Notes under the pieces: model-generated | The model's input: only the letters and a program-made list of their open reading frames with translations | Database searches by the model: none | Told to the model about the DNA's origin: nothing | Origin: Halorutilales archaeon Cl-col2-1 | GTDB taxonomy: Archaea > Halobacteriota > Halobacteria > Halobacteriales > Afararchaeaceae | Direction of reading: 5' to 3' | Assembly: GCA_041891055.1 (NCBI GenBank) | Contig: CP169074.1 | Location: 640,001-704,000, forward strand | DNA: 64,000 nucleotides | Made by a program: the position numbers and the translations under genes | Shown: one piece after another, positions 1,621-44,245 of the stretch | Layout of the letters: the number at the start of each line of letters is the position of its first letter | How positions within the stretch are numbered: the stretch's first letter is position 1

Positions 1621-1732
1621 GTTGTGTGTCACCTTGTACCACGCTTAGGACGCGCAGTATATAACCCTTGTGACTTGTTGTCACACTGAACCCAACCACC
1701 GCGAATATATAGGTGAGACGTCTAATCCGGAT

Positions 1733-4700
1733 ATGGGCGACGGGAACCAGTCGAGCATACGTGACTTCGGGGAGGAACCCGAGAATCCGGGGACGGAGAC
1801 AGAGACCGAAGGGACGGAGATAGGCGTCACCAACATAGATTACACTGTCGAGTCCGACGCCGACGGAGAGCCGTATCCCGTCGTAAATGTCTTCGGAAGG
1901 ACACGCGACAGAGAAGCCAGACACGTCCGTGTCCTCGGATTCGAGCCCTACTTCTATGTTCCCGAAGATCAAGCAGAAGGGATAGACGAGAAGGAGGAAC
2001 GTGTCACGCGCACCGAGGACGGGTACGAGTCGATAGAGGGCGACGACCTCGTCCGTGTCTACACGCGTATACCCGCAGACGTCGGCGAGGTGAGGGAGTC
2101 GTACCACCACTACGAGGCGGACATACTCTTCCCCAACCGTTTCAGGATAGACAAGGGGGTCAAGTCGGGGATACGTATACCTCCGGAGTACGACGGAGAT
2201 GAAGTCATAGAGATAGACGAGTCAGAAGTCGAGCCGTGCGATGTAAATGCTCCCGCACGGACGGGTATCATAGACATAGAAGTTGAGGACAGGCACGGAT
2301 TTCCCGAGAACGGCGAGGAGTCGATAATCTGTCTCACGGCGTGGGACTCGTTCGAAGACGAGTATGACGTATTCGTCTTCGACGCCGACGCACCCGACGA
2401 GGTCGACGGCGCGCGCGTCCACTCTTACGAGACAGAGGAGGAGATGCTCGACGAGTTCCTCTCGTACGTCGAGGAGAAGGACTTCGACCTGTTTTCGGGA
2501 TGGAACTTCAACGACTTCGACGCGCCGTATCTCATCGACAGACTCGACGTACTCGACCTCGACTCGGCGCGTCTGTCACGTCTAAACGAGGTCTGGCACT
2601 CCGACTGGGGCGGTCCTACCGTGAAAGGACGCACGACGTTCGACCTCCTCTACGCCTACCAGAGGATGAAGTTCACGGAGCTAGAGTCGTACCGCTTGGA
2701 CGCGATTGCTGAGGAGGAACTCGGCGAGTCGAAGGTACATTACACCGGAAAGATAGGCGATCTGTGGCACGACGACACCGAACGTCTCTTGGAGTACAAC
2801 AAGATCGACGTCGAGCTATGTGTCCGTATAGACGAGAAGGTCGACATAATAGACTTCTTCCGCGAGCTGTCACGTTTCGTCGGATGTTCGCTCGAAGACT
2901 CGACAACCCCGAGCGACGTAGTCGATATATACGTACTCAGGAAGGCACACGGCGAGTTCGTCCTGCCCTCGAAGGGAGGAGGAAGCGGCGAGGAGTACGC
3001 CGGAGGCGAGGTCTTCGAGCCTATCACGGGAATCAGGGAGAACGTCGCTGTTCTCGACCTGGCGTGTTTCACAGGAGACACGGAGGTTGTGACACCCGAT
3101 GGCGTCGTGGATATCAAACGGATGTCGGAGGGCGACGAGGTGTATACACTCAATCCCGAGACATTCGAGGTAGAGGTGGAAGAGATTATCGAGACACACG
3201 AGTACGACAATAAGTACGGCGAAATACACCACGTCAGCGGTAACACCCACGACTTCAAGGTCACAGAGAATCACCGTTTCCTAGTCTCAAACGAGAGAGG
3301 GTGGGACAGCCAGTCCCCCGAGGACTTCGACTTCATGGAGTACCGTGACGTACCTGGCTCCGACAGGTTCGCTTTCCCGAACCACGAAGCTGTCGAAGGC
3401 GAGACACGGGACGTCTTCGAACTCTGGCGCGATGCCGAGGAGGGCTACGTAGCCCTCTACTCCGACCGTGATCTTCGGTCAGTACGTCACGACTTACCCG
3501 ACGAAGTCTGTGACTCGGTGGAGCTAATACACGGCTCTTCGGGGAGGCTCAAGCTCGAAAAGACAGGGAAGTACCTCGTTCCTCTGGAAACCTACAGGAA
3601 ACACCGTGAAGCAGTCGAGACGGCTGCGGATGAGGTCGTCCTCAAACGCGGAAGGCAGCACCGAGGAGTCCCCACGGAGTTCGACTTCGACGACTGGCTC
3701 CGTCTCATAGGCTGGTATGTCACCGAGGGAAGTGCGCGGAGAAAAGACGACGAGGGAGTACACAGGGTTACATTACACCAGAAAGGAGACGAACGCGACG
3801 AGATACGTGACCTACTCGACCGGATGAGTCTGAACTACTCGGTCGACTCACGCGGTTTCAACCTCTCGAACCGTACTCTCCATGACTGGCTCACGCAAAA
3901 CTGTGGGAGTGGAAGCGAGAACAAACGGCTTCCCGACTTCGTCTTCGACCTCGACTCGTCACATCTCAATATACTCCTTGAGACGCTCGTAAAAGGTGAC
4001 GGAACCCCGTCTGAGAGAACCGGGAACGTCGATAAGTTCTGGACAGCGAGCGACAGACTCAAAGATGACGTGGTGCGTCTCGGTGTCAGGTGTGGACATA
4101 AGCCGACCGTGAAGAAACAGACCGACGGCACCTGGTATGTCTCGTTCGGAAAAAGAGGCTCGTTCAATAAATCCGTAAATGCGTCAGTCGAAGAACATGA
4201 CGGCAAGGTCTACTGCGTTACAGCCGAGAACAACCACGTGGTTCTCGCGGGACGAGAAGGCAAGTTCCAGTGGGTCGGACAGTCTCTCTACCCCATGTCG
4301 ATGGTCTCTATAAACGCGAGTCCCGAGACGAAGGCGGGCGACGAATACGACGGCGATACTTACGAGGCACCTAACGGCGTCGAGTTCAGGAAAGACATCG
4401 AGGGACTCACGAAGACGATAGTCACCGAGCTTCTCGAGGAACGTCAGAAGAAGAAAGACGCGAGGGACGAACACGAGTACGGGAGTCCCGAGTACAATAA
4501 GTTCGACAACCAGCAGAGCGCGATAAAGGTTGTTATGAACTGTTTCTCGGGAGACACCGACGTGGTGACCGAGGACGGTGTGAGGAACATAAAGGACATC
4601 GAGACGGGCGAGTACGTCTACTCAGTCGACCCCGAGACGAAGCAAGTCGAGTTCAAGGAGGTCGTCGAGACCTATGAGTACGACTACTCGGGAGAGATGG

Positions 4701-6688
4701 TCGATATAGAGACCCGGCACACCGACTTTTCTGTCACCCCGAACCACAAGATGCTCGTCGAGACTGAGTCGGGGACAGAGTTCGTCGAAGCAGGCGATCT
4801 CAACGACTACACCAACTACCAGATTCCGACAGGAGATCCCATCGACGGTGAGAAGCCCGAGAAGTTCAGCCTGCTGGAAGAAGGAAAAGCCGAGAATGTC
4901 TTTATCTACGCCGATGGACACGGAACATCCTTCAAGAAGAGTATAGGCGAGGCTTCCAAGAAGCTTGAGTACGAGTCGAACAGGAAGGCATACAGATGCT
5001 CCCTTGGTCACATACGTGAAAACCCCGTGGTCGCCGACGAAGCCGACGAAATCCTCTTGCAGAGGGGAGCGAGACAGTCAACAGTCCCTCACGAGTTTGA
5101 CATCGAGGACTGGCTACGTCTCGTAGGCTGGTACGTGACCGAAGGTTCTGTGTATGAAATCAAGCAAATCGAAGATTTGCGTACTCGTCGTGAATCTTTG
5201 ATTCACGAGATCCACCCAAAGGAGTACGAGACGACGAAGAGAGGGAGGTCGAAGAAGATACAGTTCGCACAGATAGACGGCGACGGCAGGGACTCGATAA
5301 GGTCGCTCCTCGAACGTATGGGTATGAACCCGCTGTCAGAGGAGAGACAGATCAGTGTCACGAACGCCGTAATCGCCGACTGGCTAGTCGAGAACTGTGG
5401 GAGTGGAAGCGAGAACAAACGTCTTCCCGACTTCGTCTTCAGCCTCGACTCGTCCCTCCTCGAAGTACTCTTCGACACTCTCATACAGGGTGACGGAGAC
5501 ACCCACTCGGGAATACGGTACTCGACGAAGAGCGACCGTCTCAAGGACGACATGGTACGTCTCGCCGTACATCTCGGCTACAAACCCATGGTTAGCCGTG
5601 ACTCGGGGGTCTGGAGAATACGTTTCTCACGTAACAAGGGGAGCTTCAGGATGCACAGAAACGGCTCGATATCCCGGAGCCAAGATGGCAAGGTCTACTG
5701 CGTTACAGTCGAGGACAACCACACCGTACTCGCAGGAAGAGACGGCAAGTTCCAGTGGGTCGGACAGTCGTACTACGGCGTAGCGGGTTACCCGCGTTTC
5801 CGTCTCTACGACAGGGAAATGGGAAGTGCAGTTACAGCGACGGGAAGACGTGTCATAGAACACACTCGTGACACCATACAGGAGATGGGTTACGACGTGA
5901 TATATGGAGATACTGATTCAACCCTCGTCGAGCTAGGCTCCGACAGAGAGTTCGACGAGATAATCGAGACTGGCGAGGTCATAGAGGAGAAAGTCAATGA
6001 GAGCTACGACGACCTCGCGCGCGACGAGTTCAACGCGAGTGCCGACACACACAGATGGGAGATAGAGTTCGAGAAGCTCTACCGACGTTTCTTCCAGGCG
6101 GGAAAGAAGAAGAGGTATGCTGGACATCTGACCTGGAACGAGGGGAAGGAGGTAGACGAGATCGACATCACCGGCTTCGAGTACAAGAGGAGCGACGTCG
6201 CCCAGGTCACGAAGGACGTCCAGGAGGAGGTCATACGCCGTATAGTCACCGGAGAAGAGTTCGACAGCGTCGCCGAGTACCTCAGGGATGTCATAGACGA
6301 GTTCAAGGAGGGCGACTTCTCGTACGACTACATAGGAATCCCGGGCGGCATAGGACAGAAGCTCGACGCCTACGACACCGACACGGCACAGGTCAAGGGA
6401 GCTAAGTACGCCAACGAGAACCTCGGCACCAACTTCACGAGCGGGAGCAAGCCGAAGAGGCTCTACATCAAACGTGTCAAGCCGAGCGACGACGGACAGC
6501 AGTACCCGCCGACAGACGTCGTCTGTTTCGAATACGAGGAACAGATACCTGACGAGTTCGTCGTCGACTGGGACAAGATGCTCCAGAAGACGCTCGAAGA
6601 GCCTATCTCGCGCATACTCGAAGCACTCGACTGGTCGTGGAGTGAGGTCGAGAGCGGACAGGAACAGACAGGACTCGGGGAGTTCTGA
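1733..6688 (+). CDS. polB: Family B DNA polymerase precursor with two inteins (about 836 aa after splicing)
   Basis: Exonuclease motifs DIE and GWNFNDFD; motif A DLA|SLYP, motif B KVVMN|SYYG, motif C YGDTDS, KKRYAG. Start placed at ATG 1733 rather than the ORF-track start at 1670. Confidence 0.95.
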   Translation: MGDGNQSSIRDFGEEPENPGTETETEGTEIGVTNIDYTVESDADGEPYPVVNVFGRTRDREARHVRVLGFEPYFYVPEDQAEGIDEKEERVTRTEDGYESIEGDDLVRVYTRIPADVGEVRESYHHYEADILFPNRFRIDKGVKSGIRIPPEYDGDEVIEIDESEVEPCDVNAPARTGIIDIEVEDRHGFPENGEESIICLTAWDSFEDEYDVFVFDADAPDEVDGARVHSYETEEEMLDEFLSYVEEKDFDLFSGWNFNDFDAPYLIDRLDVLDLDSARLSRLNEVWHSDWGGPTVKGRTTFDLLYAYQRMKFTELESYRLDAIAEEELGESKVHYTGKIGDLWHDDTERLLEYNKIDVELCVRIDEKVDIIDFFRELSRFVGCSLEDSTTPSDVVDIYVLRKAHGEFVLPSKGGGSGEEYAGGEVFEPITGIRENVAVLDLACFTGDTEVVTPDGVVDIKRMSEGDEVYTLNPETFEVEVEEIIETHEYDNKYGEIHHVSGNTHDFKVTENHRFLVSNERGWDSQSPEDFDFMEYRDVPGSDRFAFPNHEAVEGETRDVFELWRDAEEGYVALYSDRDLRSVRHDLPDEVCDSVELIHGSSGRLKLEKTGKYLVPLETYRKHREAVETAADEVVLKRGRQHRGVPTEFDFDDWLRLIGWYVTEGSARRKDDEGVHRVTLHQKGDERDEIRDLLDRMSLNYSVDSRGFNLSNRTLHDWLTQNCGSGSENKRLPDFVFDLDSSHLNILLETLVKGDGTPSERTGNVDKFWTASDRLKDDVVRLGVRCGHKPTVKKQTDGTWYVSFGKRGSFNKSVNASVEEHDGKVYCVTAENNHVVLAGREGKFQWVGQSLYPMSMVSINASPETKAGDEYDGDTYEAPNGVEFRKDIEGLTKTIVTELLEERQKKKDARDEHEYGSPEYNKFDNQQSAIKVVMNCFSGDTDVVTEDGVRNIKDIETGEYVYSVDPETKQVEFKEVVETYEYDYSGEMVDIETRHTDFSVTPNHKMLVETESGTEFVEAGDLNDYTNYQIPTGDPIDGEKPEKFSLLEEGKAENVFIYADGHGTSFKKSIGEASKKLEYESNRKAYRCSLGHIRENPVVADEADEILLQRGARQSTVPHEFDIEDWLRLVGWYVTEGSVYEIKQIEDLRTRRESLIHEIHPKEYETTKRGRSKKIQFAQIDGDGRDSIRSLLERMGMNPLSEERQISVTNAVIADWLVENCGSGSENKRLPDFVFSLDSSLLEVLFDTLIQGDGDTHSGIRYSTKSDRLKDDMVRLAVHLGYKPMVSRDSGVWRIRFSRNKGSFRMHRNGSISRSQDGKVYCVTVEDNHTVLAGRDGKFQWVGQSYYGVAGYPRFRLYDREMGSAVTATGRRVIEHTRDTIQEMGYDVIYGDTDSTLVELGSDREFDEIIETGEVIEEKVNESYDDLARDEFNASADTHRWEIEFEKLYRRFFQAGKKKRYAGHLTWNEGKEVDEIDITGFEYKRSDVAQVTKDVQEEVIRRIVTGEEFDSVAEYLRDVIDEFKEGDFSYDYIGIPGGIGQKLDAYDTDTAQVKGAKYANENLGTNFTSGSKPKRLYIKRVKPSDDGQQYPPTDVVCFEYEEQIPDEFVVDWDKMLQKTLEEPISRILEALDWSWSEVESGQEQTGLGEF
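3065..4282 (+). mobile_element. Intein 1 (406 aa) with LAGLIDADG homing endonuclease, in PolB motif A
   Basis: Starts CFTGDTEV; block B VTENHRF; LAGLIDADG helices LRLIGWYVTEGS and LLETLVKGDG; ends VYCVT...NH...WVGQ before Ser+1 (SLYP). Confidence 0.92.
4541..5767 (+). mobile_element. Intein 2 (409 aa) with LAGLIDADG homing endonuclease, in PolB motif B
   Basis: Starts CFSGDTDV; block B VTPNHKM; LRLVGWYVTEGS and LFDTLIQGDG; ends VYCVT...NH...WVGQ before Ser+1 (SYYG). Confidence 0.92.
5156..5212. repeat. Double mini-hairpin cassette (about 51 bp) inserted in frame in intein 2
   Basis: GCAAATC-GAA-GATTTGC (5164-5180) and TCGTGAATC-TTT-GATTCACGA (5188-5208), flanked by GAAATC/GAGATC 51 bp apart. 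The first hairpin is identical to one at 42530-42546. Confidence 0.8.
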
Positions 6689-42075: not shown

Positions 42076-42253
42076 ACAATTGAGTTTTCTTAAGAGAAGT
42101 TTATAACTTATGATAGACGGTTAGGAAAAACAGAACGACAGAACGGGTACTTACCGATGCCACCCCTTTCCACCAGTATAGTACAGCCTATAAGACAGGG
42201 GTCGCGTAAAAATACCTGTCCCTTCTACATAAGATACTACACTAGTAGTCGTA

Positions 42254-42476
42254 CTATACAGCCGCCGTGTCGGGCATCTCGTGTCTCCGTATCAGGTAGA
42301 ACGCGCCCGTCAGAACACCGAGGAGGAGAGCGTACGCTGCAGCTGTGACAAGGGCGTCGGTGGGAGTAGCGTACTTGTCGGCGCGGTATGTGATGATCTT
42401 CCGTCCTATGGCTATCATGCCCGATACGACGACTATACGTATCACAGGCTCGTCTCGGCTGTAAGCTACGACAGTC
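42254..42476 (-). pseudogene. C-terminal fragment of a PsiE-like membrane protein gene split by the IS
   Basis: TVVAYSRDEPVIRIVVVSGMIAIGRKII (PsiE-like IA..RK.I); continues the fragment at 44019-44245. Confidence 0.75.
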
Positions 42477-42501
42477 GTCAACCGCCTCGGGGTCAAGCCC
42501 C

Positions 42502-42550
42502 GTCCCGAGAGCTTTGCTCTCGCGGGCTCGCAAATCGAAGATTTGCGAAC
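42502..42550. repeat. 49-bp double mini-hairpin cassette inside the right-end hairpin of the IS
   Basis: CGAGAGC-TTT-GCTCTCG (42506-42522) and TCGCAAATC-GAA-GATTTGCGA (42528-42548); removing it restores GCCTCGGGGTCAAGCCCCGAGGC. Confidence 0.8.
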
Positions 42551-42574
42551 GAGGCTTGTCAGTGGACTCCCGCT

Positions 42575-43804
42575 CTATCCGAGCAACTCGGAAGGCGTGT
42601 AATCGCCGTTCGCGTTCAACGTCCCTGACTTGAGGGCCAGTTGACTGGTGGCCCGTCCAGCACCAGACTTGAGCCAGTGCTGAACAAGACGCCACCCAAT
42701 GTTTCGGGCAGCATTATAGTCGGAGTGCAGTTCCTTCCCACACTTCAGGCACTCAAACTCGTCACCATCACGGTTGTCCTCGTGCGTGAATCCGCACTCG
42801 CCGTGACTGCACCGCTGCGACGTGTACTGCGGTGCAACGTCATCCACATCGATACCGTACTCTTCGGCCTTGTATTCGACGTGGCGTTGGAGTTCGCGGA
42901 ACGCCCACTGCTGGAACTTGCTGGCGTTCGAGATGCGTTCGCGGATGTGCGTCAGGTTCTCGAACGCAATCGCCGTGCAGTCGTTCTCCACGGCTTCCTG
43001 CACAATCGCTTTCGAGACGCGGTGGAGGTAGTCCGCACTCCACCGAGCGAACCGTGAGCCGATACTCTTGATGGTGATGTGCGCGGAACGAGTGCCTGTC
43101 TGTTGCAGGTTTCCGCGACGACGTTCATACTCGTCACGCTTGTGGTTGAGATAGTCTGCATTGCCGAGGAACGCTCCCGTGCTGGTGACCGCGAGGTAGC
43201 TGTCCACGTTCAAGTCAACGCCGAGAACCACTCCGTTCTCGGTCGATTCGTCGCTAGAATCAGCGGGTTCGACTTCTTTCTCGACTGCGACGTGGAGGTA
43301 GTACGTGCCGTCACGCTTGTGGAGTGTTGCTTCCTTGCGTTCCCACTCTGGCGTCCAATACTCCGCGAAGGGTGTCCCCGCGTCGTCTTCGGGCGTGACA
43401 AACTCGGCAGTCACGCGGTCGCCAACCGTGGCGAGCGTTACGTGGTCGTCGTGATAGGTGATGGTACGCCCATTGTACACGACAACTGAGCCTCGGAACT
43501 CTGGCTTGCTGGCTTTCTTACCGTCGTCAAGGATGCGGTCTTTGCAGTTGCCGAGTGCGTCGGCGGCGAGGTTTCGGGCAGATTGGACGAGACTGGATTG
43601 TAGATTTGTCTGCTCCCGAACGTCGGTGTAGGTTTGGTCGTGGAGCGTGTTTTTGGTGTCCTCGATTTCTGTAGGGTCGTCACTCCATCCAGCGTCAGCG
43701 ACGTGTTGGGCCGCTTGGCGGAATTGCTCGAACGTCTCCTCGAGAACGCTGTGAGCGTCCTCGGGAACGTCGAGCTTTAGCTGGATGTTGCGGACGACCT
43801 CCAT
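42575..43804 (-). CDS. tnpB: RNA-guided endonuclease TnpB
   Basis: RuvC-I VLGVDLN, RuvC-II IAFENL, YTSQRCS..CG...CLKCG zinc finger, RuvC-III SDYNAARNI; all three catalytic acidic residues present. Confidence 0.93.
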   Translation of the reverse strand: MEVVRNIQLKLDVPEDAHSVLEETFEQFRQAAQHVADAGWSDDPTEIEDTKNTLHDQTYTDVREQTNLQSSLVQSARNLAADALGNCKDRILDDGKKASKPEFRGSVVVYNGRTITYHDDHVTLATVGDRVTAEFVTPEDDAGTPFAEYWTPEWERKEATLHKRDGTYYLHVAVEKEVEPADSSDESTENGVVLGVDLNVDSYLAVTSTGAFLGNADYLNHKRDEYERRRGNLQQTGTRSAHITIKSIGSRFARWSADYLHRVSKAIVQEAVENDCTAIAFENLTHIRERISNASKFQQWAFRELQRHVEYKAEEYGIDVDDVAPQYTSQRCSHGECGFTHEDNRDGDEFECLKCGKELHSDYNAARNIGWRLVQHWLKSGAGRATSQLALKSGTLNANGDYTPSELLG

Positions 43805-43923
43805 ACTTCATTAGTATGCTTGGAGATACTTAAGAGTATTTTTCGGGCGTGGGAGAGTCGGCCTTGCCATCGTGTGTGGTTTGTGTCATCGAGTGTCGGC
43901 TTCCTCCCCGACCTCAAGGATCG

Positions 43924-43996
43924 TTCGCAAATCTTCGATTTGCGACTGTAGCCAATCAAAGATTGGCATACCCACGAGATCGAAGATCTCGGGATG
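43924..43996. repeat. 73-bp triple mini-hairpin cassette inside the left-end hairpin of the IS
   Basis: TCGCAAATC-TTC-GATTTGCGA (43925-43945), GCCAATC-AAA-GATTGGC (43951-43967), CGAGATC-GAA-GATCTCG (43975-43991); removing it restores CCCCGACCTCAAGGATCGGGG. Confidence 0.8.
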
Positions 43997-44018
43997 GGGT
44001 ATCCGCCTCGCTATCTCT

Positions 44019-44245
44019 ATGAAGAGGAGGAGCGCTGTGTCTATCAGACCAACGACCTCACGTGCCTCTGTGATACGTCCTGTACGGGCTAGCTCGACTA
44101 TCGAGAGTCCGAAGTCGAAGACACCGACGCCAAACAGAACGACAAGCACCCCCGCGGTTACGAGTTCTAGCCACCTCATTACCTCCTCTAACTTCTCGGC
44201 GAAGGTCGCCTCGTGGAAACGTCGGAGGAGTCTGTCACTCTGCAT
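44019..44245 (-). pseudogene. N-terminal fragment of the PsiE-like gene split by the IS
   Basis: MQSDR...ELVTAGVLVVLFGVGVFD...LIDTALLLF, after which the frame runs into IS sequence. Confidence 0.75.

Follow-up and report, generated by a model that had tools for sequence, protein, structure and literature searches.

What are the minute hairpin-bearing cassettes that interrupt an insertion sequence (IS) and an intein in Halorutilales archaeon Cl-col2-1, and how did they come to be there? The question is raised by a stretch of 64 kb (C1:640001-704000), called the window throughout, in which an element of the IS200/IS605 family has one cassette near each end and the gene for a family B DNA polymerase (PolB) has a third one within an intein. 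The original prediction, made from the letters of this DNA, regarded them as modules of a candidate undescribed insertion system. In this work we show that the window cassettes are recent insertions of a tiny mobile palindromic repeat. We consider it probable that they are copies of a genome-wide family of mini-palindromes similar to repetitive extragenic palindromic (REP) sequences, whose inverted pairs, with tags facing outward, move into hairpins, possibly by a cut-and-join reaction of the HUH type.

The genome under study (G000) has a size of 2.06 Mb and a G+C content of 55%, and is assembled in 4 contigs, of which C1 and C2 are referred to by these names; its sister species is designated G001. 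The related genomes, as well as the metagenomes with related DNA, are haloarchaeal or hypersaline. Empty alleles were drawn from paralogous copies within the genome and from orthologous sites in G001, and the metagenome evidence consists of contig joints from four public runs (X1, X2, X3 and X7), depth figures and uncovered stretches being left out. A unit was defined as a perfect hairpin with a 3-nt loop and a stem of at least 6 bp that either has an ATC-NNN-GAT core or lies no more than 52 nt from one that has it. The chance expectation for contig C1 was obtained from five second-order Markov simulations.

The window has 13 hairpins in which a 3-nt loop closes a perfect stem of 7 bp or more, and seven of them make up the three cassettes (Table 1). 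Their stems of 7-9 bp, their loops (GAA, AAA or the complements), the ATC-NNN-GAT core in six of the seven and the distances between centres (24, 24, 24 and 26 nt) were all found where the original prediction had placed them. All six stretches, taken as single-stranded DNA, fold far more stably than their shuffled versions (z = -3.7 to -5.9; none of 200 shuffles equal).

All three cassettes are insertions, since an empty allele exists for each of them. A paralogous copy of the window IS at C2:112958-114332 matches its exact span with 89.6% identity over 1375 nt (93% in tnpB) and is without exactly the 49 nt of the right-end cassette and the 73 nt of the left-end one. The end hairpins of this copy are unbroken, the right one being GCCTCGGGG-TCAAG-CCCCGAGGC, with a perfect 9-bp stem, and the left one CCCCGACC-TCAAG-GGTCGGGG; these are precisely the terminal hairpins that removal of the cassettes had been expected to restore. 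Among the metagenome contigs the joint 42500>42550 ("skips 49") occurs in nine contigs from all four runs, and the joint 43922>43996 ("skips 73") in two contigs of run X2, with variants of 74-77 nt in X1, X3 and X7; as cassette-free contigs may stem from relatives or from paralogues, they are evidence for the existence of the empty form and not for variation at this locus. The third cassette lies in the second PolB intein, just past its first LAGLIDADG motif. The orthologous intein of G001, 97% identical at the protein level, reads through without the 51 nt, and the intein match is 1200 nt long in G000 as compared with 1149, 1149 and 1146 nt in G001, G027 and G011. The lengths of 49, 73 and about 51 bp estimated earlier thus became 49, 73 and 51 nt, and the view that the units are REP-like and truly inserted is borne out for all three sites.

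The PolB gene itself (window 1670-6688, 1672 aa) stays open despite its cassette; intein matches (Hint and intein-splicing) fall at about residues 466-501 and 950-1352, together with a LAGLIDADG domain. A paralogous intein adjoins, just upstream of the one that bears the cassette.

The flanks of the window IS are joined in G001, as well as in one contig of 5656 nt from run X2, which defines the element as window 42477-44018 and dates its arrival after the split of the two species. In place of the IS the empty site has 18 other nt, ATGAAGACCTCGACTATG, missing from G000 (window 42476/42477 and 44018/44019; about 2073-2092 of G001 locus L151). Both the window IS and its C2 copy lie directly 3' of TCTTCAT on the tnpB strand, and the ATGAAGACCTCGACTATG stretch is bounded by two TCTTCAT repeats on the same strand, its own end being the second of them, which suggests that the IS inserted beside TTCAT and that the 18 nt were lost through the repeats. 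Insertion adjacent to TTCAT is ordinary IS200/IS605 behaviour. The IS has been struck at both ends, so that its two end hairpins are split, and the PolB intein has been struck in frame.

The contig with the cassette-free twin, C2, has a length of 116 kb and a G+C content of 49.6% versus 55.4%, carries a PCNA-like gene and several copies of tnpB, and is possibly a plasmid.

Table 1 Features of the window that bear on the cassettes (positions are those of the window)
Feature	Position	Strand	Description
IS200/IS605-family element, IS1341 type (tnpB only)	42477..44018	-	1542 bp; 3' of TTCAT on tnpB strand
Intact tnpB open reading frame	42575..43804	-	409 aa; Pfam Cas12f1-like_TNB 4e-22, OrfB_IS605; NCBIfam guided_TnpB 175.8 bits (cut-off 100)
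Native right-end hairpin, split by cassette	42484..42555	+	GCCTCGGGG-TCAAG-CCCCG at 42484-42502, AGGC at 42552-42555; contiguous in C2 copy
Right-end cassette	42501..42549	-	49 nt, two hairpins, tags outward on minus strand; 2-nt (CG) junction ambiguity; not in C2 copy
Right-end cassette, hairpins	42506-42522; 42528-42548		loops TTT; GAA
Native left-end hairpin, split by cassette	43906..43999	+	CCCCGACC-TCAAG-GATC at 43906-43922, GGGG at 43996-43999; contiguous in C2 copy
Left-end cassette	43923..43995	+	73 nt, three hairpins; 1-nt junction ambiguity; not in C2 copy
Left-end cassette, hairpins	43925-43945; 43951-43967; 43975-43991		loops TTC; AAA; GAA
Unoccupied target hairpin in tnpB	43221..43242	-	CCGAGAAC-GGAGTG-GTTCTCGG, just upstream of VLGVDLN
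Intein cassette	5159..5209	+	51 nt, two hairpins, in frame (17 codons); not in G001 ortholog
Intein cassette, hairpins	5164-5180; 5188-5208		loops GAA; TTT

How much DNA moves in one step was read from nine clean filled/empty pairs. Seven of the inserts carry two hairpins: 44 and 49 nt at the first and second sites in an IS family (C1:1161xxx / C2:39xxx), 48 nt at an orthologous IS end (C1:18434xx versus G001), 48 nt at the same codon position in four diverged tnpB genes, 49 nt in C1:1655876 compared with C1:526701, 49 nt at the right end of the window IS and 51 nt in the PolB intein. One insert, of 73 nt at the left end of the window IS, has three hairpins, and one, of 96 nt at a left end common to a TnpA-bearing IS and its gene-less relatives, has four; none of the nine is a single unit. 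Target duplications were not found in any of the nine pairs, whose junctions are ambiguous by 0-4 nt. According to the same alignments an outward tag of the CGTY type stands at both ends of the insert in eight of the nine, which argues for defined element ends, although the two stems of a pair usually differ in sequence. Together with the even cluster sizes described below, the two-hairpin inserts indicate that the step is a pair of units and not one. Growth by one module at a time, as had been proposed, is therefore not what the pairs show; the quantisation of insert lengths at about 24-25 bp stands as far as the period is concerned, the actual step being two hairpins. The further expectations that a related IS copy would lack the hairpins, that lengths would be quantised and that target duplications would be missing all agree with what was found.

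The left-end cassette has the appearance of a pair with outward tags into which an additional GCCAATC unit has been placed, and it resembles a cassette at C2:57980-58074 (89% identity). One 48-nt pair is present at two places that are unrelated, 1018901/1018924 and 1843472/1843495, and the family has been active between the sister species, as seen from the 48-nt gain at the orthologous IS end and from array expansions. Paralogue pairs differing by 109, 140 and 146 nt were left out of the count; the last of these (C1:914964 versus C1:1615314) proved to be two different arrays and not a clean insertion. Likewise C1:1018xxx, with two more units than C1:1161xxx, represents a replacement rather than a simple insertion and was not counted.

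The cassettes belong to a family that is spread over the genome. Contig C1 has 454 perfect hairpins with a 3-nt loop and a stem of at least 7 bp, as against 197-240 in the five simulations, and 158 of this stem length with an ATC core, as against 1-3; the excess is far above chance. The motif ATC-NNN-GAT occurs 614 times in the genome, with a bimodal distribution of stem length, one peak at the 3-4 bp of chance occurrences and another at 7-9 bp, and with no stem of 10 bp or more. Genome-wide, 282 units were counted in 113 clusters, with 117 of the 169 spacings between units at 23-25 nt and 146 at 22-27 nt. Clusters of two, four and six units (45, 15 and 5 clusters) prevail over those of three, five, seven and nine (12, 1, 3 and 1).

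The unit is probably a perfect hairpin of 21 nt whose stem has at most 9 bp, usually with an ATC-NNN-GAT core, and whose 3-nt loop is in most cases RRA or its complement; at the outer stem positions T/C, C, G prevail. It is polar. Of 259 units, 143 have a triplet of the tag type (CGT, with TGT and CAT as variants) on exactly one side and none on both, 114 of 518 unit sides carry CGTT, CGTC or CGTA at a constant distance, and a GCC/GGC tail is common on the side opposite the tag. Within arrays the units alternate in orientation, so that tags meet as ACGT and tails share GCC, and more than 20 different stems recur, with A and B units freely recombined. In 92 paralogous pairs in which the 14 nt to either side of the loop are identical, the loop is the same in 67 and differs in 25; among the latter, three show an exact reverse complement, and several others change between a purine and a pyrimidine loop. 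Pyrimidine loops outnumber purine ones about 2:1 on the strand that has the tag 5'. A loop far more changeable than the stem, and invertible, suggests that the palindrome passes through a single-stranded or cruciform state or that the template is switched within it.

Every resolved target is a pre-existing hairpin. At both ends of the window IS the cassette sits in the 3' arm, 4-6 nt past the loop; in the tnpB genes it occupies the loop of CCGAGAAC-GGAGTG-GTTCTCGG, just upstream of the VLGVDLN motif (presumably RuvC-I), a conserved hairpin that is still free in the tnpB of the window; in the intein it lies at the border of loop and arm of TGTAT-GAA-ATACA. Other inserts lie in the stem or the loop of further IS-end hairpins or in the gap between units already in place. 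Cassettes are inserted in both orientations, and a conserved target motif sought at the nine junctions was not found. The four diverged tnpB genes (C1:129993-130013, 219451-219471, ~1844300 and 1930867-1930887) share a near-identical in-frame cassette of 48 nt that encodes the peptide TSRSGSFDGSQIEDLR. A hairpin unit of these tnpB cassettes is also present in the intein insert, where it encodes KQIEDLR.

Genome-wide, 104 of the 282 units (36 of 113 clusters) lie no more than 1.2 kb from one of 33 tnpB matches, an area of about 5% of the genome, which amounts to an approximately 7-fold enrichment and confirms the predicted accumulation in selfish DNA. A further 101 units (41 clusters) have flanks that are themselves repeated. 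The remaining 77 units (36 clusters) have unique flanks, and some of the single ones are probably chance hairpins; four clusters abut tRNA genes, about one being expected (C1:182186, Pro; 372195, Glu; 939061, Gly; 1656390, Ile). The claim that all sites are in selfish elements thus holds within the window and does not extend to the genome. Selfish DNA is thus favoured without being the sole site, and in the simplest reading the target is the hairpin, in which IS ends abound.

Which enzyme might act on such hairpins? The genome has a single gene for a Y1 HUH protein (C1:979038-979397, PF01797 5.6e-39), divergent to a tnpB, and a six-unit array follows directly after this gene, on that side only. 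Its product, of 135 aa (C1:979011-979418), is an ordinary IS200 TnpA: it scores 159.5 bits against the IS200 transposase model, and 26.1 bits, under the cut-off of 80, against that of REP-associated tyrosine transposases (RAYTs). The gene is the sole PF01797 gene of the genome and is paired with tnpB, and no RAYT gene was found there. This agrees with archaea having only TnpA of subclass 1.1, the one subclass reported for them in the relevant section of PMC6006769. Both unit-rich genomes have TnpA, and pairs of hairpins with 9-bp stems and 3-nt loops also occur beside TnpA in two further genera.

Only in the genus of G000 and G001 is the tagged unit expanded, with 34 and 30 matches, respectively, among 401 genomes sampled. 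Elsewhere 3-7 matches were found in genomes of genus g20 and 1-3 in g11 and G045; among the matches listed, about 10 of the 401 genomes have palindromic ones, the other single matches listed being not palindromic. A pattern scan of the genomes of all species gave at least two perfect hairpins at 11 of the 80 loci examined, five of them haloarchaeal and the others from Anaerolineales, Solirubrobacteraceae, Sphingobium, Methanocellales, Methanolliviera and an uncultured archaeon contig, which gives no basis for a distribution. Pairs or triplets of perfect mini-hairpins with the ATC/GAT core, 22-35 nt apart, were seen in assemblies of Anaerolineales, Methanocellales, Solirubrobacteraceae and Methanolliviera (L046, L051, L068 and L091). 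A plasmid BLAST with a 53-nt right-end cassette returned three partial matches (Halorubrum, Halapricum and Natronobeatus; E = 0.3) and was uninformative, and Rfam gave no match in 42200-44200.

A Cas4-like PD-(D/E)XK nuclease (C1:937562-938461, L145; TIGR00372 42.6 bits, under its cut-off) was considered as a partner of the units on account of the two arrays that flank it, and was rejected as it is single-copy in 35 of 41 relatives; its placement is probably coincidental. Other open reading frames between arrays encode MetRS, a phosphoesterase, PCNA and a DDE transposase.

From these elements the following route may be drawn. The mobile piece would be a pair of inverted units of 48-51 nt with the tags outward, and it would integrate in either orientation, without target duplication, into or beside a pre-existing DNA hairpin. 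IS200/IS605 (TnpB) elements have hairpins at both ends and one inside tnpB, so they are struck most often. With both end hairpins of the window IS split, recognition by TnpA would be blocked and the 3' stem of the omega-RNA damaged; the right-end hairpin region would also be the 3' end of the omega-RNA scaffold. Cutting and joining of single-stranded DNA would be performed in trans by a Y1 HUH enzyme, the sole candidate being the IS200-type TnpA. The alternating polarity of the units would explain the two-unit step, because on either strand only every second unit is correctly oriented. Taken alone, this trans-acting reaction on single strands is a possibility that we would place somewhat below even, and we prefer it for the tag-outward ends, the lack of duplication, the hairpin substrates and the polarity that explains the step.

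Several observations speak against this route. No conserved motif stands beside the inserts, while the host IS obeys the IS200/IS605 rule and sits 3' of TTCAT, so the cassettes do not act as miniature IS200/IS605 elements. The insert ends vary by up to 3 nt between events, and in six of the nine inserts 2-4 nt are common to junction and flank, which would also fit copying driven by microhomology. The intein insert, one of nine, is in the opposite phase with the tails outward, and the 73-nt cassette requires an extra single unit. TnpA is of the ordinary IS200 type and not a RAYT, no hairpin pairs are present at three of six TnpA loci examined, and 16 of 41 relatives have TnpA without any expansion of units, which makes the link of the units to TnpA circumstantial.

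A more specific proposal, which we regard as doubtful, is that haloarchaea harbour a replicator of about 49 nt resembling the paired REP elements called REPINs, built from two inverted 21-nt hairpins with CGTY tags, which lives as a hyperparasite of RNA-guided TnpB/IS200-IS605 elements and moves without a RAYT, through a hijacked IS200 TnpA acting in trans or an unrecognised enzyme. Such a replicator would home to hairpin loops and stems, split IS-end hairpins, which would be those that TnpA binds and the omega-RNA's terminal stem, and enter the conserved hairpin of tnpB, and its loops, hypervariable and prone to flip, would be a trace of its having passed through a hairpin of single-stranded DNA.

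The main rival is template switching at palindromes, which needs no dedicated enzyme: during replication or break repair the nascent strand, on meeting a palindrome, would switch to another array, copy a stretch that preserves the register and return. Hairpins stall replication, and all the sites are hairpins; junctions with 0-4 nt in common with the flank, the missing target duplication, boundaries that shift by a few nt and arrays in which different A and B units are freely recombined would all follow from it. Loops that flip or mutate beside 28 identical nt, as in the 25 of 92 pairs, are a signature of switching within a strand, a process that would also keep the stems perfect. Random switches would not, however, be expected to give the same phase in eight of nine inserts at nearly equal length or to deliver one 48-nt pair to unrelated sites, and the intein target offered just a 5-bp hairpin. 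On balance we hold this explanation to be unlikely.

Still less probable is that the units form a domesticated host system which disables IS200/IS605/TnpB elements and homing endonucleases, as Dyall-Smith et al. proposed for the SMR-A repeats in the part of their report dealing with them (PMC3119063). The split hairpins at both ends of the window IS, the four tnpB genes with a cassette just upstream of VLGVDLN and the hit in the endonuclease domain of the intein are what such a system would produce. Yet all the struck open reading frames stay open, the inserts within genes being 48 or 51 nt, multiples of three, about a quarter of the units are in unique DNA, tRNA flanks included, and the choice of targets may merely follow hairpins. 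No host gene specific to the unit-rich genomes was found, the Cas4-like nuclease being shared by most relatives. That the hairpins are simply the native ends of this IS family, as their presence next to many tnpB genes of the genome might suggest, is hardly credible, for the closest copy (on C2) lacks both cassettes and has intact hairpins of a different kind, cassette-free forms are present in all four metagenome runs, and an intein as well as unique DNA contains the same units.

The insertion of small repeats with inverted ends into hairpins is not without precedent, and in this respect the system had been called undescribed too readily. The SMR-A repeats of Haloquadratum walsbyi (HqIRS42, HqIRS43 and HqIRS55) already behave in this way: as described in the sections devoted to them by Dyall-Smith et al. 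(2011; PMC3119063), these measure about 110 bp, have inverted ends, leave the target unduplicated and strongly prefer to go into the near-terminal palindromes of IS605-type transposons and of palindrome-associated transposable elements (PATEs), a placement that accounts for 104 of 192 nested insertions. Their mobilisation is termed "enigmatic" there, and an anti-transposon role is proposed. Like SMR-A, the cassettes are haloarchaeal, non-coding, far below the size of a transposase and free of target duplications, and they split near-terminal palindromes at both ends of the window IS and at further IS ends. The comparison was made by description only, and against about 110 bp of SMR-A, highly conserved within a family, there are here 48-51 nt with two 21-nt hairpins and many stems. 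The SMR-A accounts speak of inverted terminal repeats unrelated to known transposons, and the cassettes consist of inverted units whose stems usually differ. Unlike what those sections describe, the units also pile up in periodic arrays of 24-25 nt, and they are inserted in protein-coding DNA (intein and tnpB) and beside tRNA genes. Later work on SMRs was not found in a full-text search of the literature.

The anatomy of the unit recalls instead the bacterial CGTC-tagged REPs, including dRS3 of Neisseria and RPE-4/-6 of Rickettsia, for which Di Nocera et al. (2013; PMC3733652) report, in the portions concerned, 8-9-bp stems, 3-nt tails and inverted dimers, dimers inside other palindromes, in-frame insertions in genes including those of DNA polymerase and repair, and no dedicated transposase. 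As in those repeats (tagged CGTC, also TGTC), the tag is one-sided, the stem, here of 7-9 bp, is followed by a 3-nt tail (GGC/GCC), and the units come mostly as inverted dimers found inside palindromes and in frame within genes. The loop has 3 nt here and 4-5 nt there, the rule of A/T at the first two stem positions is not obeyed by our units, and the tail consensus is GCC in place of CCA. The CGTC-tagged REPs are, moreover, presented as bacterial only, and large regular arrays of them as rare.

From the REPs of proteobacteria, which are roughly 35 nt long, the unit of 21 nt differs in size. The arrays of REPs and bacterial interspersed mosaic elements (BIMEs) and the REPIN-RAYT systems of proteobacteria, as outlined in parts of PMC3116915, PMC2817692 and PMC3479197, share with the units short hairpins in alternating orientation at regular spacing that resemble IS200/IS605 end hairpins, an association with other mobile elements and palindromes and, for REPINs, a replicating unit of two inverted hairpins, as in seven of the nine inserts here. 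The GTAG tag of REPIN-RAYT systems is replaced by CGTT, CGTC or CGTA, and there is no single-copy RAYT flanked by repeats. The cassettes thus combine the behaviour of SMR-A with the anatomy of CGTC-tagged REPs in a smaller and more modular form, of which no description in archaea was found in the literature searched.

Cas12 descends from TnpB elements, which today serve as genome-editing tools and whose natural limits are very little known; repeats that break the end hairpins of IS605-type elements have been reported once, in 2011, with a mechanism called "enigmatic". The genome presents a much simpler version of such a system, with moving pieces of about 49 nt, empty sites known to the nucleotide, a sister species to compare and a single candidate HUH enzyme, which makes the mechanism directly testable. 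REP/REPIN-type biology would also be carried into the archaea, for which no RAYTs are known.

PATEs, gene-less derivatives of IS200/IS605 elements, are found in the same genomes and, according to the passages that introduce them (PMC3119063), are likewise hairpin-bearing and make no target duplication. They keep the asymmetric ends of the parental IS and a fixed short target, unlike the cassettes, which are symmetric pairs without a flanking motif and insert into the hairpins of both PATEs and IS. Units are also carried by PATE-like elements without genes, about 470, 500 and 655 bp in length, in G001 (L016, 760-1234; L024, 479-982) and at C1:368600-369255 and its copies. The two in G001 are missing from the corresponding sites of G000, and a nested insertion of about 465 bp was seen in two copies of the 655-bp element.

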